NCBI GenBank assembly: GCA_020341815.1
Contig: CP070837.1
Coordinates: forward strand, 465,743 to 529,742
DNA: 64,000 nt
DNA from: Candidatus Omnitrophota bacterium
GTDB lineage: Bacteria; Omnitrophota; Gorgyraeia; JAFGHF01
Direction of reading: 5' to 3'
Positions 16,556-26,915 of this stretch are shown here, piece after piece. The first letter of the stretch is position 1. Each line of letters starts with the position of its first letter. Below the pieces are notes generated by a model that was given only the letters and a program-made list of their open reading frames with translations, searched no databases and was not told where the DNA came from. The translations under genes and the position numbers were made by a program.

Positions 16556-16565
16556 ATTATCCCCC

Positions 16566-16660
16566 TTTTATCACTGAAGCCACTGAAGTTGTTAACTGAA
16601 ACCACTGAGGCTTTATTCAGTGCTCTCAGTGTTATTTTTTCAGTGTTTTTCAGTGTCTCT
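16566..16660. repeat. intergenic palindromic repeat element, family A, copy 1 (CACTGAR units mirrored by YTCAGTG units)
   Basis: tcactgaagccactgaag...aaccactgagg // ttcagtgctctcagtg...ttcagtgtttttcagtgtctc. Imperfect 90-nt palindrome sitting between the pilP stop and the pilQ SD (AAAAGGGGGG). Confidence 0.6.
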
Positions 16661-17629: not shown

Positions 17630-19171
17630 TCATTTCTTAATGCAAATAATTGTAAAGTTCTTTACCGACGTTCCTTGCACCTCTGTTGAATCCATTGATT
17701 CTAATTCAATCTCTTCAAATCCCTCAAAAAACTTCTGATTTTCTTTTAAACTGGAAACAAAATTAGTGATTACCCTTACTTCCCGGGCATGGTCTTCGCG
17801 ATGAACTATCCCCTTAATAGTCAAGGAACGGCTGACCCTATCCTTTGATACTCTATCGGTAAAAAATAAATCAGTTAACCATGCGCCCGGAGGAATTATC
17901 CTGGGCAATTCATTAAACTTATTGGTCCAGAAGACTCTGTCGGTGATAAGCAAGTCCAGGCTGGATATCTTATTCTGCAATTCTTTTCTCGCTTTCTCTA
18001 TATCTTCATAAGAAAGACCTTCGGCATCCATGGTAACTTTAGGCCTGAGGGCAGTTACCTGTTCCAGCTGTTTCTTTTGCTCGCTGATACGATAAAACAT
18101 CAACAAATATAAAATCAAAAGGCCCACGCAGGATACCTTTATAGCCCGATATGCTGTATAGCGCAACTCCGGAGTAAACTCAAAAGCCTGCGCTTTTGAA
18201 ACCGGAGGCGCAACTTCGGCTTTGACCTTGCGGACCCGGTAAAGATTCACTTCATTCGGAGCTAAAATCAGCTTGCGCAGGCCCAAACCAATAGCTACGG
18301 CCATACTTAAAGGAGGCAGGCTCCTGCGAACTTTTATAGCTTTTGCCAGGTCGGCTTTCTCCACAGGTATTTTTAGTTCCTGACTCAAGGTCTTATCCCA
18401 ATTCTTAAGATCAACTTGCCCGCAGAGCAATATCTTGCCAACGATCTCGGCAGGAAAAAGTTTTTCATAATAATCCAAAGACATACGTAATTCATTAAGC
18501 AAATTATCAAATATTAATTCTTCTTCCGAAGGAAGAGAAACATCCCTGGTAAGATAACAAATCTTCTCTTTTAGAATATTGATATCGGCCATACCATAAT
18601 CAATATCTACGATGACATTGGGTTTATTTTTGGCTAATTGTCTGCCTGATGTAAAAAATCTCACCAGACTAAATGGAGCCGGCTCCAAAGCCAAAACTTT
18701 AAGGCCCGCCTGTTCCAAAAGAGAAATATGATTTTTGGCTATTTCCTTTTTTACTGCCACAAAAGTAATATCCATCTTGGCATCTTTGCCACGGGATAAA
18801 TTTGCCTGAAAATCCCAGAATAATTCTTCTATTTTAAAAGGAATGTGCCTTTTGGCTTCAAACTTTATCGCTGTTTCCCATTCGGCCTTTGGTATCTTGG
18901 GCATCTGAAAATATCTAATCAATACATCTTTTCCGGAAAGAGCGGTAAATACCTTCTTGGCGTTAATTTTATTCTCCCGAAAGACTTTCCTGATGGCACT
19001 TACTTTTGCCTCATCAGCTTGAGTCTTATCCGCCGAAGAAGCAGCCTCAATCTCTGCCTGGCCAAATTTAAGCAGGCGCGCACCAAAAAGCCCGCCTTTT
19101 AGCTGGGCAACATAAACATATCTTGCCCCTATATAAACACCTGTTGTAGTCTGAAAATTAAAACCTTTCAC
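17630..19171 (-). CDS. PilM-PilN fusion protein (actin-like ATPase PilM fused to the PilN TM and periplasmic domain)
   Basis: 513 aa. About 350 aa PilM-like N-terminal part, then TM helix AIKVSCVGLLILYLLMFYRI, then a coiled-coil and periplasmic PilN-like tail. Confidence 0.7.
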   Translation of the reverse strand: MKGFNFQTTTGVYIGARYVYVAQLKGGLFGARLLKFGQAEIEAASSADKTQADEAKVSAIRKVFRENKINAKKVFTALSGKDVLIRYFQMPKIPKAEWETAIKFEAKRHIPFKIEELFWDFQANLSRGKDAKMDITFVAVKKEIAKNHISLLEQAGLKVLALEPAPFSLVRFFTSGRQLAKNKPNVIVDIDYGMADINILKEKICYLTRDVSLPSEEELIFDNLLNELRMSLDYYEKLFPAEIVGKILLCGQVDLKNWDKTLSQELKIPVEKADLAKAIKVRRSLPPLSMAVAIGLGLRKLILAPNEVNLYRVRKVKAEVAPPVSKAQAFEFTPELRYTAYRAIKVSCVGLLILYLLMFYRISEQKKQLEQVTALRPKVTMDAEGLSYEDIEKARKELQNKISSLDLLITDRVFWTNKFNELPRIIPPGAWLTDLFFTDRVSKDRVSRSLTIKGIVHREDHAREVRVITNFVSSLKENQKFFEGFEEIELESMDSTEVQGTSVKNFTIICIKK

Positions 19172-19395
19172 TTTCTTTGTCCCTTTTTTGCTTGAGAGCT
19201 CTTTTTTTGCTCTGCTTCGGTCCTTGCCTCTCTGATCTGGGACCTTAGCCAGGCATCAACTGCTCTTTTATCAAAGCGCCAGACATGCCCCACCTTAATC
19301 CCCGAAATCTTCTTTGCGTGTAACCAGTTATAAATAGTCTGCTTCTGTAATTTCAGATAGGCGGCTAGCTCGTCTACGTCCATCAGCCTACTCAT
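19168..19395 (-). CDS. excisionase-family helix-turn-helix DNA-binding protein (HTH_17)
   Basis: 75 aa; VDELAAYLKLQKQTIYNWLHAKKISGIKVGHVWRFDKRAVDAWL. 4-nt overlap with pilMN. SD AAGGAGG. Confidence 0.7.
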   Translation of the reverse strand: MSRLMDVDELAAYLKLQKQTIYNWLHAKKISGIKVGHVWRFDKRAVDAWLRSQIREARTEAEQKKSSQAKKGQRK

Positions 19396-21485: not shown

Positions 21486-22379
21486 TTATAATATCTCCAG
21501 TGCCTTTTTTACTGTATTATAATGAATAAGCACCGTATCATTTATATCCTGAGCGTATCCTCCGCCAAACACTACCGCTACATGTGCCTTACTTTCCTTT
21601 GCCAGGGCAAAAACAAACTCATCTCTCCTTTCTAAGCCATCCAGAGTAAGCCTAAGCGCCCCCAGCTGGTCTTTAAAATAAGGGTCTGCCCCGGCAATAT
21701 AAAAAACCAATTGCGGTGCGAAATCCTTAAAAATCCTGGGTAATTCTTTTTCCAAGGCATCTAAATATTCTTTATTACCGCTGCCATCGGCCAGGCCGAT
21801 ATCTAAATCACTGGGAGGCTTAATTAAGGGATAATTATTCTCTTGATGGATTGAAAAAGTAAAAACCTCTTTCGAATCTTTAAATATATGGGCATTCCCA
21901 TTGCCCTGGTGCAGATCACAGTCTACTATCATTATCTTGCGCAACTTCTCCTGCACCTGGCAATATCGAGCTGCGCAGGCCACATCATTCAAAACACAAA
22001 AGCCTTCTCCGTGGTCGGCAAAGGCATGATGAAATCCACCGCCTAAATGAACGCAGGATGTCTCTTTCAGGGCCAGCTTTGCGGTAAGGATTGTCCCGCC
22101 CACGCATATGCGCGAAGCCTGAACCAGAGGTTTGGAATAAGGCAGCTCTAAAGTAAATATCTCCTGCGGCGATAAAGTTCCTTGAGTCAGCTTATCAAGG
22201 TACGCTTTTGTATGAACTAAAAGAAGCTCTTCCTCTGAGGCAAAAGGCGCAACAATAAAATCCTTATCCGGAATAATCTTTTCTTTTCTTAGCTTTTCAC
22301 GGATGAGGCGAAATTTAACGGTAGGAAAGACGTGCGCGCCAATATTTACTTCATAAGCATCTGAATAAACTACCTTTAT
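21486..22379 (-). CDS. histone deacetylase / acetoin utilization (AcuC/HDAC) family amidohydrolase; start codon unresolved
   Basis: Table ORF 21486..22103 begins at a GTG, but the same frame stays open to 22385 and encodes an HDAC-like N-terminus (YSDAYEVNIGAHVFPTVKFRLIREKL...). There is no ATG/GTG/TTG in those 94 codons. Confidence 0.65.
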   Translation of the reverse strand: MKVVYSDAYEVNIGAHVFPTVKFRLIREKLRKEKIIPDKDFIVAPFASEEELLLVHTKAYLDKLTQGTLSPQEIFTLELPYSKPLVQASRICVGGTILTAKLALKETSCVHLGGGFHHAFADHGEGFCVLNDVACAARYCQVQEKLRKIMIVDCDLHQGNGNAHIFKDSKEVFTFSIHQENNYPLIKPPSDLDIGLADGSGNKEYLDALEKELPRIFKDFAPQLVFYIAGADPYFKDQLGALRLTLDGLERRDEFVFALAKESKAHVAVVFGGGYAQDINDTVLIHYNTVKKALEIL

Positions 22380-22883: not shown

Positions 22884-23087
22884 TTACTTTCTCAGTTCTA
22901 TTCTGTAATCCTGGCCTTCTTTTTCTAATTTTACATGGCCTTCTCTGGCCAGCCAACCCAAGCTCATTAAAATAGTATCGCGCGGTTTATCCAAACCGGC
23001 AACTAAATCGGCCAAGGCAGCAGTTTTCCCGTGTTCATCTAAAAAATGCCAGATATCTCCTGCCACTATTCCTAACTCCGTTATCAA
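22884..23087 (-). CDS. small hypothetical protein (winged-helix-like)
   Basis: 67 aa; no recognisable motif beyond predicted helical content. 4-nt overlap with the upstream gene. Confidence 0.35.
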   Translation of the reverse strand: MITELGIVAGDIWHFLDEHGKTAALADLVAGLDKPRDTILMSLGWLAREGHVKLEKEGQDYRIELRK

Positions 23088-23356
23088 CGGCCACCTCCTT
23101 CTCTCTCGTTATAGCTTTTACACCTTGGACAAATAGAAAGCCTGCTATTTTTGCTATCTACATAAATATAAGTGCAGATAAAACACTGCCATATTGATTC
23201 AAGTTGTGCGCTATGCTTGGCACGAACCTTCATTCTTGCAAATATAACCCAGGCAATCAAAAAACCGAAAATTGCAATTAACAAGTATAAAAATATCGCT
23301 ATTTCAAATTGTAGTTTTATCATTTGGAATCCAGAGCTATTTTTATAGTCTGCCAC
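23084..23356 (-). CDS. small membrane protein with C-terminal zinc-ribbon (CxxC...CxxC)
   Basis: 90 aa; TM helix FEIAIFLYLLIAIFGFLIAWVIF; WQCFICTY...ICPRCKSY. Confidence 0.45.
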   Translation of the reverse strand: MADYKNSSGFQMIKLQFEIAIFLYLLIAIFGFLIAWVIFARMKVRAKHSAQLESIWQCFICTYIYVDSKNSRLSICPRCKSYNEREGGGR

Positions 23357-25115: not shown

Positions 25116-25126
25116 TTTTTCCTCCT

Positions 25127-25222
25127 TTTAACACTGAGAACACTGAATTACTGACACTGAGAACACTGAAAGAAAAACTTCAGTGGTTTCAGTGATTATT
25201 TCTTCAGTGGTTTCAATGTCTC
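25127..25222. repeat. intergenic palindromic repeat element, family A, copy 2
   Basis: aacactgagaacactgaattactgacactgagaacactgaa // cttcagtggtttcagtg...cttcagtggtttcaatgtctc. Lies between the stop of the HTH-TM gene and the exbB SD. Confidence 0.6.
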
Positions 25223-25535
25223 ATTTAACAAAAAAGATAACTATCAATAAAACTATGCTTATAATTGCAGAGATGATATAAAAATCATTAAAATATAAGA
25301 AATCTTTTATTTTTTCCCAGCGTTGATTCACCGGTCCGGATGAGGATTCTCGCTTTTCAACTTTAGTTATCCCCTGGCTTTTGATTATATCAATCTGCCC
25401 TTTTCTAAATCTCAAAATAGTGCCTCCGAGCCTATAGGCAGGAATCTCGCCTTTTTCTACCAGATTTCTTAAATCATCCTCTGAAATATCCAGATATCGA
25501 CAGACTTCTTTTACATTCAAAAGTTTCTCTGACAT
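25221..25535 (-). CDS. membrane-anchored excisionase-family HTH protein (N-terminal HTH_17, C-terminal TM helix)
   Basis: 104 aa; LLNVKEVCRYLDISEDDLRNLVEKGEIPAYRLGGTILRFRKGQID, then YIISAIISIVLLIVIFFVK. Confidence 0.6.
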   Translation of the reverse strand: MSEKLLNVKEVCRYLDISEDDLRNLVEKGEIPAYRLGGTILRFRKGQIDIIKSQGITKVEKRESSSGPVNQRWEKIKDFLYFNDFYIISAIISIVLLIVIFFVK

Positions 25536-25562
25536 CTTTTGGCTCGCCCCGTTTTTTTTATT

Positions 25563-26135
25563 TTACTTTATCTTTTCACTGGCAATCCAAACATCGACTT
25601 TGGCCCGGTCAAACTTCCAGTTATTACCTTCTTTTTGCGTAGGAATTTTGCCTGCCTTGGCCCAGTTTAATATTGAACTGGCGTCTACTTCTAAATATTT
25701 TGCCAATTCATCAACCGTCATCAATGCTTCCTGCATCGTAGAACGGCTGGGTTTGGCTGTCTCTTTTGATTCCATCTGAATTTTTCCCTGCACTACTGCC
25801 CCTTCGGCTATACTGAGACTGCAGGTGCGGATATCTCCCGCCAAATATGCGCTGCGGCTAAGACTGAGACTCCTGGTGGCCACTACATTGCCATAAACTT
25901 TGCCGCAAATTTCAATGTTCTCTCCGATAATATCGGCCTGCACCCGCGCATTTTCTCCTATGGTTAAATTTCCCTTGGTGTCCAGGCTGCCTTCAAATTT
26001 GCCGTTAATGCGCAAATTTACCGCATCGCGAAATGTAAGACTTCCCTGCATACTGGCATCAACATCAAGAATCTTTTTCTCTTCAGCTTGAGCCTTTAGC
26101 TCTTCCTTTTCCTTTCTTTTGGCCCTAAAAGCCAT
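25563..26135 (-). CDS. bactofilin domain protein fused to a C-terminal excisionase-family HTH domain
   Basis: 190 aa; residues about 30-125 match the bactofilin beta-helix repeats (RINGKFEGSLDTKGNLTIGENARVQADIIGENIEICGKVYGNVVATRSLSLSRSAYLAGDIRTCSLSIAEGAVVQGKI). C-terminus VDELAKYLEVDASSILNWAKAGKIPTQKEGNNWKFDRAKVDVWI is a paralogue of the 19168-19395 HTH. Confidence 0.8.
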   Translation of the reverse strand: MAFRAKRKEKEELKAQAEEKKILDVDASMQGSLTFRDAVNLRINGKFEGSLDTKGNLTIGENARVQADIIGENIEICGKVYGNVVATRSLSLSRSAYLAGDIRTCSLSIAEGAVVQGKIQMESKETAKPSRSTMQEALMTVDELAKYLEVDASSILNWAKAGKIPTQKEGNNWKFDRAKVDVWIASEKIK

Positions 26136-26155
26136 AGTTGCACCTCCTCTTTTTT

Positions 26156-26250
26156 TATCACTGAAGCCACTGAACTTGTTACACTGAAGTCACTGAGAAT
26201 CTATTCAGTGTTTTCAGTATCATTTTTCAGTGTTCTCAGTGTCTTACAAT
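26156..26250. repeat. intergenic palindromic repeat element, family A, copy 3
   Basis: tcactgaagccactgaacttgttacactgaagtcactgagaa // tctattcagtgttttcagtatcatttttcagtgttctcagtgtctt. Lies between the stop of the MgtC-family gene and the SD (AGAGGAGGTG) of the bactofilin-HTH gene. Confidence 0.6.
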
Positions 26251-26915
26251 TCCTGCCAACTAGCCCTTTCCACTCCTTTAATTCGCATTATATCCGTAAT
26301 AACCTGGTCATCCTGCCTGTTAGTTATAAGCTTTAAGTTCAATTCTACTATCACATTATTGCTGTCGGATTTCTTTTTTATTTCAAAATCTCTGATTTCC
26401 GCTTTATAATCGGATAAAGCCGAGCGGATATCTTTTAATTGCTGGGCATTGCCTTTGGTTTCCACGGCAAGTATTTTATACCAGTCCTTCTTTCCCAGCA
26501 CTCTCTCTACCCTTGTCAGGAAAAATAAAACAAAAAGCACCAGGGCCGTCGTTGCATAAGCGCCGGAATAAAATCCGCTGCCGATGGCCAGGCCTATTCC
26601 CGTCACCGCCCAGAGACTGGCAGCGGTAGTCAAACCGCGCACCGAGGCCTTAAAGCGTAAAATCGTGCCCGCCCCTAAGAAGCCGATACCGGTAATGACC
26701 CCGGCAGCTATCCTGGCCGGGTCTATCGTAGCCAATTCCCGATAGGCGTAAAAAATGTATATAGAAGTGAGCATAAGCAATGTTGACCCCAGACAAACCA
26801 AGATGTGCGTCCTCAAGCCCGCGGCGCGGCCATGGGATTCTCTTTCCAGGCCGATTAAGCCACCCAGCACAAAGGCCAGGATCAGGCGAATAACAGTTTG
26901 TTCTGCGCTAAACAT
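26244..26915 (-). CDS. MgtC/SapB family membrane protein
   Basis: 223 aa; LILAFVLGGLIGLERESHGRAAGLRTHILVCLGSTLLM is the MgtC family signature; C-terminal soluble domain. Confidence 0.75.
   Translation of the reverse strand: MFSAEQTVIRLILAFVLGGLIGLERESHGRAAGLRTHILVCLGSTLLMLTSIYIFYAYRELATIDPARIAAGVITGIGFLGAGTILRFKASVRGLTTAASLWAVTGIGLAIGSGFYSGAYATTALVLFVLFFLTRVERVLGKKDWYKILAVETKGNAQQLKDIRSALSDYKAEIRDFEIKKKSDSNNVIVELNLKLITNRQDDQVITDIMRIKGVERASWQEL

Follow-up and report, generated by a model that had tools for sequence, protein, structure and literature searches.

Can a bactofilin reach DNA through a domain of its own? Bactofilins are widespread scaffolds whose known links to DNA are indirect, running through PadC and ParB in Myxococcus and through BacR in Bacillus. 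The question is raised by a locus from a Candidatus Omnitrophota bacterium (GenBank assembly GCA_020341815.1, contig CP070837.1), a member of a phylum known almost only from metagenomes. In a 64,000-nucleotide stretch of this contig (positions 465,743 to 529,742 of the forward strand; hereafter the window, in whose numbering its features are given), an initial annotation made from the letters alone had picked out a gene in which a bactofilin appeared to be fused to an excisionase-type helix-turn-helix (HTH) domain, next to a gene for a second HTH protein with a transmembrane (TM) helix. It had proposed that such a pair would link DNA to a cytoskeletal polymer and to the membrane in one step. 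We found the covalent bactofilin-winged-helix fusion to be genuine, paired with the membrane-anchored winged-helix protein and present phylum-wide in Omnitrophota. A role for the pair as a DNA tether is proposed here tentatively and weighed against its rivals.

Domain architecture of the fusion protein

The fusion gene (25563..26135, minus strand; the whole open reading frame (ORF) including the stop codon) encodes a protein of 190 amino acids that scored above the Pfam gathering cut-offs for both Bactofilin and HTH_17. Specifically, PF04519 (Bactofilin) matched residues 22-119 with 80.8 bits against a cut-off of 27.9 (E 9e-23), covering profile positions 2-97 of 98, and PF12728 (HTH_17) matched residues 138-186 with 43.9 bits against a cut-off of 27. 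The NCBIfam model TIGR01764, 'excisionase family', gave 38.4 bits (cut-off 28.8) and was also above its cut-off for the other two HTH proteins discussed below, of 104 and 75 amino acids.

The structure of the fusion protein was predicted with AlphaFold2 (AF2) from a 23-sequence alignment, with a mean pLDDT of 78.8. Residues 22-121 (25773..26072, minus strand, as are all parts of the gene) adopted the bactofilin beta-helix, with ten-residue block means of pLDDT of 88-94 over nearly the whole domain. The C-terminal residues 137-190 (25566..25727) contained a wHTH (winged helix-turn-helix) at residues 138-188, modelled with a pLDDT of about 80 and with the a1-a2-b1-b2-a3 topology of a winged helix (helices 141-148 and 152-161, strands 167-169 and 172-176, helix 177-188). 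These two domains were joined by a flexible linker of low pLDDT and poor conservation (residues 122-136, 25728..25772) and preceded by a basic N-terminal tail (residues 1-21, 26073..26135, beginning MAFRAKRKEKEE). Residues 1-19 and 125-134 were predicted to be disordered (pLDDT below 50, about 41 for the tail), and no helical or coiled-coil segment was found outside the HTH in this model.

Searching the PDB with Foldseek returned two sets of structures, one for each domain. The bactofilin set comprised the Thermus thermophilus protein 6rib (TM 0.91, rmsd 1.4 A) and 2n3d (TM 0.73). The second set consisted of MerR-like winged-helix proteins, namely BldC (6ama/6amk; 33% identity, rmsd 1.3-1.5 A), RdfS, RacA, the Pukovnik Xis, CbpM and pSK1 Par. 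In a profile comparison with PDB sequences, E values were 7e-11 for BacA, 3e-8 for TtBac, 0.04 for BldC and 0.32 for RacA. The 190-residue protein is thus, by profile and by fold, a member of both the bactofilin family and the HTH_17/excisionase superfamily, and both halves of the gene bear out what had been read from the sequence, a canonical bactofilin beta-helix and a C-terminal domain of the HTH_17/excisionase type.

At the C-terminal end face of the bactofilin half, the residue aligned to F130 of BacA and F105 of TtBac, which is critical for polymerisation in the family, is a valine in the window protein (motif EGAVVQG) and is hydrophobic (L/F/I/V/M) in 116 of 120 homologues. The N-terminus reads MAFRAKRK in the window and MAFR[NS][KR][KR]K in the near clade, the tail carrying a net charge of +3; distant members begin with MLKRDK or MRRRGRE, which are likewise basic and less hydrophobic. 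The global consensus of bactofilin membrane-targeting peptides is MFSKKKK (PMC12448750). From its likeness to this motif, the tail is predicted to bind the membrane.

Conservation was then compared between the parts of the protein. Mean pairwise identity over 84 orthologues was 64% for the beta-helix, 56% for the HTH, 41% for the N-terminal tail and 17% for the linker, the length of which differed between orthologues. The contrast between the two domains and the linker shows that the protein consists of two constrained domains on a free linker. Within the fused HTH, the invariant residues were YLE, W, P, W-x-F and W.

Conservation of the fusion across Omnitrophota

A search of 5.8 billion proteins returned 2076 hits, and domain content was examined in the best 120 of them (54-96% identity, 168-200 amino acids). 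All 120 contained both Pfam domains. Their database names were 'polymer-forming cytoskeletal protein [Candidatus Omnitrophota]' or 'excisionase family DNA binding protein'. In a scan of one genome per GTDB species, 526 species-level genomes were found to encode a relative of the fusion; the best 80 of these were metagenome-assembled or single-amplified genomes of Omnitrophota, or 'uncultured Planctomycetia' records with the same gene order. When 1.84 billion cluster representatives were searched exhaustively with HMMER, 21 of them matched at E <= 1e-30. Divergent fusions at 30-37% identity still contained both domains, and these most divergent members again came from Omnitrophota or shared the partner gene, so that no fusion was found outside Omnitrophota in these searches. 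The records labelled 'uncultured Planctomycetia/Planctomycetales bacterium' (e.g. L006, L011, L019 and L022) showed the order CtpB-TsaD-MgtC-fusion-HTH-TM at 51-72% identity and, judging from this order, are probably mislabelled Omnitrophota.

The initial annotation had itself raised the concern that the fusion might be a frameshift artefact joining two separate genes; an assembly error could likewise have merged the genes of a bactofilin and of a stand-alone small HTH protein. Stand-alone small HTH_17 genes do occur in the same genomes, one of them 48% identical to the fused domain, and some database entries cover one half of the protein only (P0413, P0414 and several short fragments). These one-domain entries, however, lie on contigs of about 1-1.6 kb, consistent with truncation, and the fusion was a single ORF in 84 of 84 related loci, which stem from independent assemblies; in these the frame ran through without a break and the linker kept its place. 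Together with the presence of both domains in every one of the top 120 homologues, this refutes an artefactual origin and leaves virtually no chance that the fusion is an error. In keeping with the initial remark that this architecture was not known to have been characterised, literature searches returned no paper on a bactofilin-HTH fusion, nor any on Omnitrophota together with bactofilin. The proteins of the module are already annotated automatically.

The tail-anchored partner

The gene directly downstream of the fusion (25221..25535, minus strand) encodes a protein of 104 amino acids, which had been described as an N-terminal HTH of the same type followed by one C-terminal TM helix. Both analyses agreed with this description. 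PF12728 matched residues 5-49 with 42.7 bits, and the AF2 model showed a wHTH at residues 5-53 (the domain taken as residues 1-54), disorder at 58-69 and a single long helix at 69-103. Since this helix ends at the C-terminus, the protein is tail-anchored and has essentially no extracytoplasmic part. Its HTH is 28% identical to the fused one and keeps the canonical excisionase wing, IPAY-(K/R)-(I/L)-GG-x-x-x-RF-(R/K), in which the Arg-Phe is invariant. Just ahead of the hydrophobic span lies a juxtamembrane motif, D-x-x-Y-F-x-D-F-Y, whose residues D78, Y81, F82, D84, F85 and Y86 are invariant and which is under stricter conservation than the surface of the partner's own HTH. The names of this protein family came only from Omnitrophota. 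A protein made of a wHTH and a membrane helix only is hard to explain unless it links the ligand of the wHTH to the membrane.

In order to compare gene neighbourhoods, ORFs were called in the 84 related loci and matched to the proteins of the window. The HTH-TM gene lay directly downstream of the fusion in 80 of these loci, and the four exceptions stop at a contig edge. The pair was kept even in the divergent locus L086, where the genes upstream encode a giant protein, a SPOR protein and a TPR/PDZ protein. As the adjacency is near constant and the flanks vary, the conserved unit is the two-gene pair, usually situated in an operon with envelope and housekeeping genes.

A second Bactofilin-HTH_17 subfamily, 30% identical to the window protein, was also found in Omnitrophota, one member being named Omnitrophica WOR_2. 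Its loci (L085 1-6850, L089 179-8754 and L091 150-6935) encode both domains and have no adjacent HTH-TM partner; the fused HTH is therefore not only a dock for that partner, and the architecture occurs in two contexts at least. These proteins start with MKFFSQKKR, a textbook membrane-targeting-like sequence, and their HTH has a net charge of -7 and no basic wing residue. They adjoin a 465-residue ParA/CbiA-type ATPase with an AMPK1_CBM domain and variably lie near a Volactin-type actin homologue, a MamF_MmsF protein and GvpA/AAA gas-vesicle genes. This cluster may consist of organelle- or cargo-positioning genes.

Possible nucleic acid contacts of the fused domain

Is the fused winged helix a DNA-binding domain? 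By its sequence and fold, DNA binding is plausible. With the exception of CbpM, most of its closest structural matches are architectural or regulatory DNA binders (BldC, RdfS, RacA, Xis and pSK1 Par). A WAKAGK stretch is identical in BldC, and the equivalent of BldC Trp31, which contacts phosphate, is an invariant tryptophan. In the main fusion family, conservation extends to the wing Lys/Arg-Phe and to several further basic positions, and the window's own domain has a net charge of +1.

A number of observations weigh against DNA binding. The published contacts of BldC (PMC5859096) were mapped onto the fused HTH of 115 family members via a HMMER alignment. At the position of Arg30, a base-contacting residue that RacA uses as well (PMC5859096), 102 of the 115 members (89%) carry Asp or Glu and the window protein carries Asn. 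Lys26, the other base contact, is replaced by Ser or Asn, and the phosphate-contacting Thr27 and Thr29 by Asn/Ser and Leu/Met, respectively. The equivalent of Arg22 is an invariant Glu. Overall, the mean net charge of the fused HTH is -1.3 to -1.9 (family range -6 to +1; pI about 5.4), as compared to +6 for BldC and an average of +3.6 for the small pil-linked paralogues in relatives. The recognition-helix positions hold acidic or small residues where the pil-linked paralogue has basic or polar ones. In divergent fusions the net charge of the HTH reaches -5 to -7, one subfamily lacking any basic wing residue. CbpM, which acts via protein contacts, is itself among the structural matches, and neither a candidate DNA site nor a conserved non-coding region was found to accompany the genes in the related loci. 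An acidic recognition helix can still be compatible with DNA binding, which for its part cannot be assumed.

Proposed role of the two-gene module

We tentatively propose that the module is a multivalent tether that anchors DNA, most probably the nucleoid, to the cytoplasmic membrane on its inner face. The family, the fold and the conserved hydrophobic end residue suggest that the bactofilin domains would stack into non-polar, nucleotide-independent filaments, and the short basic N-terminal peptide MAFRxKKK, by its likeness to the published motif, would keep the filament on the membrane. Each subunit would display a winged helix of the BldC/Xis/RacA type on its flexible linker, which is about 15 residues long in the window protein. 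If filament contacts are tail-to-tail, the winged helices would emerge in pairs at regular spacing, and the resulting array might bind DNA at low sequence specificity with avidity supplied by the polymer. The tail-anchored partner would contribute another winged helix, fixed to the membrane and bearing the canonical excisionase wing, that binds the same DNA. Such a module would collapse RacA-DivIVA or BacNOP-PadC-ParB into one polypeptide and a membrane partner. In favour of the tether stand the folding and separate conservation of both domains, the breadth of the family over the 526 species genomes and the nearly invariable adjacency of the partner, L086 included. A more specific form of this proposal makes the filament of bactofilin a DNA-binding polymer in its own right. 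It would form a lattice on the membrane that displays a winged helix on every subunit and, jointly with the partner, directly pins the chromosome or a defined region of it; we regard this as conceivable and somewhat doubtful.

If the DNA binding is real, the pair would be a minimal and directly testable nucleoid-membrane tether, the first case of a bactofilin contacting DNA without ParB-type intermediaries and a minimal nucleoid anchor for very small cells. The organism is uncultured; the small size of the two proteins (190 and 104 amino acids) makes the question answerable with recombinant protein.

The average acidity of the fused domain, with Asp or Glu at the base-contact position and the invariant Glu of its YLEV turn, speaks for an alternative in which the wHTH has lost DNA binding and instead docks the filament onto the tail-anchored partner, or recruits another client, so that the module would be an ordinary membrane-bound morphogenetic scaffold with an unusual adaptor. 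On the partner, docking could take place at its wHTH or at the invariant DFxYFNDFY juxtamembrane motif, and the latter is conserved more strictly than the surface of the partner HTH. Further support comes from the still more negative charge of divergent fusions and from CbpM, which has the same fold and binds the J-domain of CbpA. Bactofilins typically recruit membrane-protein clients via short cytoplasmic peptides (PMC12448750; PMC13649987), and the conserved neighbours of the pair are envelope genes (those for a CtpB-type S41 protease, a YibQ-like deacetylase and MgtC, and for the SPOR protein in L086). Nevertheless, the second subfamily retains its fused HTH with no adjacent HTH-TM gene, the bactofilin already has a membrane-targeting-like N-terminus, and the canonical excisionase wing of the partner would be left without a role. 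No charge complementarity was seen between the fused HTH and the partner HTH over 80 pairs (r = 0.10). We consider a protein adaptor rather unlikely; were it nonetheless the true function, the protein would plainly exemplify how a fold of the excisionase type has been repurposed as the adaptor of a cytoskeletal polymer.

A further possibility is that the two HTH proteins are gene-specific regulators whose access to DNA is set by polymerisation and membrane tethering, making the module a transcription switch. The Bacillus subtilis protein BacR (YhbD) is an HTH regulator functionally linked to the bactofilins of the same operon, which keep it on the membrane and inhibit it from binding DNA (PMC13649987), and if two partners of this sort were fused, this would make a classic 'Rosetta stone' case. 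A second analogy is offered by regulators bound to the membrane that a signal sets free, a gene for a CtpB-type protease is conserved two to three genes upstream, and the fold is that of BldC-type regulators. On the other hand, none of the three HTH proteins matched DUF4004, the family of BacR, at E <= 0.1. In relatives the fusion gene follows its upstream gene after 10-30 bp or overlaps it, leaving no promoter region of its own and no conserved operator for classical autoregulation, and promoter- or terminator-like sites were not enriched; autoregulation via a conserved operator was thus without support. A covalently fused HTH could be released from the polymer only by cleavage, and the tail-anchored partner has no extracytoplasmic part with which to sense a signal. 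On balance a sequestered regulator appears improbable. Returning to the tether, it is the reading that we provisionally retain.

Genomic context

In almost all related loci the recurrent gene order was CtpB - (YibQ-like) - TsaD - (MgtC) - fusion - HTH-TM. In the window the gene for MgtC lies upstream of the fusion on the same strand, and those for TsaD, a YibQ-like deacetylase and a CtpB-type S41 protease lie beyond it. The usual upstream neighbour is the MgtC-family membrane protein with an ACT-like tail (26244..26915, minus strand; Pfam MgtC, 140.7 bits), whose gene is directly upstream in the majority of loci. In relatives the two genes overlap or are 15-22 bp apart, and the MgtC gene is probably co-transcribed with the fusion. 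It was absent from loci L011, L041, L048, L074 and L080 and is therefore not obligatory.

Downstream of the pair, Pfam identified genes for ExbB, ExbD and a TonB_C protein on the same strand, as initially reported for the window. Outside the window this arrangement did not hold as a general feature: exbB-exbD-tonB followed the pair only in loci L003-L012 and L088, at identities of at least about 62%, and distant orthologues were followed by unrelated genes, as in a 56%-identical relative with AIRC, Ni_insertion and T2SSE genes at this place. A general functional link to exbB-exbD-tonB was accordingly rejected, the linkage being limited to the closest clade. Directly beyond the TonB_C gene, the window encodes a 90-residue protein and a 67-residue DUF2582 winged-helix protein (22884-23087 and 23084-23356, minus strand). 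The former has one hydrophobic segment and a CxxC...CPRC zinc-ribbon-like tail and gave no Pfam match; in L088 a DUF2582 gene is likewise positioned after the TonB_C gene. An ORF of the histone-deacetylase family (21486-22103, minus strand) encodes 205 amino acids covering profile positions 86-286 of 298, and its syntenic gene in L088 encodes 303 amino acids; the window ORF may be frameshifted, 5'-truncated or called from a missed start. No defence genes were found in the neighbourhood of the fusion. Almost all genes of the window lie on one strand and no change of GC skew was seen in it, so that it is uninformative on the proximity of a replication origin.

The initial annotation had also described both genes as bracketed by a family of repeats. 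Such elements do exist in the window, as three palindromic copies of about 85 nt inside operons (approximately 16560-16645, 25125-25225 and 26150-26250). Each consists of four CACTGA(A/G) heptads and four inverted units and ends just upstream of a ribosome-binding site. A repeat 15-mer matched 11 times in the window against 0.1 expected, and the predicted hairpins (-27 to -37 kcal/mol) had folding z-scores of -4.6 to -5.9; no Rfam match was obtained. Their position around the pair is, however, incidental. In a 96%-identical relative the mgtC-fusion spacer is 15 bp long and free of the element, as compared to 108 bp in the window, and the CACTGA motif was not found in 88 related loci. On these grounds the repeats were rejected as binding sites for the HTH proteins; they look like strain-specific REP- or MITE-like insertions that are not part of the module. 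In the same relative (L087 5783-5815), the contig ends 32 bp past the stop codon of the HTH-TM gene, within a palindrome rich in GC (agcccccgctgcttcgctttgcgaagcaaagc) that has no relation to the CACTGA element. This suggests that the families of repeats or hairpins found at this intergenic site differ from strain to strain.

A third HTH_17 gene (19168..19395, minus strand) encodes a small basic protein of 75 amino acids, in which Pfam HTH_17 matched residues 4-53 with 54.5 bits. It overlaps by 4 nt a PilM-PilN fusion gene (17630-19171), to which it is translationally coupled, and further on lie pilO/P-like genes and those for a secretin and a T2SSE ATPase; its earlier placement at the head of a pilMNOPQ cluster was thereby upheld. 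The same arrangement was seen in L003 (14275-16022), L011 (11383-12563) and L088 (16316-18078). With 48% identity this protein, whose overall net charge is +10, is the paralogue nearest to the fused HTH; although akin to the two-gene module, it does not belong to it, and it may act as a pil regulator or handle DNA at the base of the pilus. An HTH profile built from all HTH copies found exactly three HTH_17 ORFs in the window, and hence no expansion of such genes.

Comparison with known systems

The canonical bactofilins BacA of Caulobacter crescentus and TtBac of T. thermophilus have the same beta-helical core, hydrophobic end residue and disordered tails as the fusion protein, whose basic N-terminal peptide resembles the membrane-targeting motif MFSKKKK. 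Their C-terminus, however, is a short disordered peptide, whereas that of the fusion is a folded and conserved winged helix of 50 residues.

For this winged helix, the small MerR-like wHTH protein BldC of Streptomyces was the best match in both structure and sequence. BldC is a free-standing protein that multimerises head-to-tail on direct repeats of DNA, while the fused HTH is carried by a bactofilin domain and differs from BldC in net charge (about -1 against +6). Its score against the BldC model NF033787 of NCBIfam was 19.9 bits, well under the cut-off of 77. The base contacts of Arg30 and Lys26 have become Asn/Asp/Glu and Ser, and the Arg22-Glu16' salt bridge of the head-to-tail dimer is impossible because the equivalent of Arg22 is an invariant Glu.

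Two further small proteins have the HTH_17/MerR-like fold. MamR has a known role at an organelle, the magnetosome, and CbpM binds a partner protein; both serve as precedents for non-canonical use of the fold only. The match to the MamR model of NCBIfam was weak (E 4e-4, 20.5 bits against a cut-off of 100), and orthology has no support for either protein. Against the MADS MAD1 HTH model (NF047737), all three proteins remained below the cut-off of 80, with 49.5 bits for the fusion, 36.9 for the HTH-TM protein and 65.9 for the pil-linked protein. Judged by profile scores, the fusion protein is not a member of the BldC, MAD1, MamR, RacA or DUF4004 families.

Three systems bring an HTH protein or DNA together with a scaffold. 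BacR of B. subtilis is encoded with the bactofilins BacE and BacF, bound by them and held at the membrane (PMC13649987); it is nonetheless a separate protein of the DUF4004 family, whereas the present HTH is joined covalently to the bactofilin and another one is anchored to the membrane. In Myxococcus xanthus the BacNOP polymer positions chromosomal DNA (PMC5703909). There the link to DNA is indirect, via PadC and ParB/ParA, and domains of ParB or PadC are missing from the present module. In function, the proposed DNA tether has its nearest analogue in RacA-DivIVA of B. subtilis and pSK1 Par, in which a MerR-like wHTH likewise sits on a self-associating or scaffold-binding part and fixes DNA at a cell site. 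Those parts are coiled coils, RacA relying on DivIVA as a separate scaffold, whereas here the scaffold itself is fused; the sequence match to the N-terminal domain of RacA was marginal (E 0.32), and the arginine of RacA is missing from the fusion family. Sharing nothing beyond the fold class with any of them, the module may still work like RacA-DivIVA, pSK1 Par or BacNOP-PadC-ParB.

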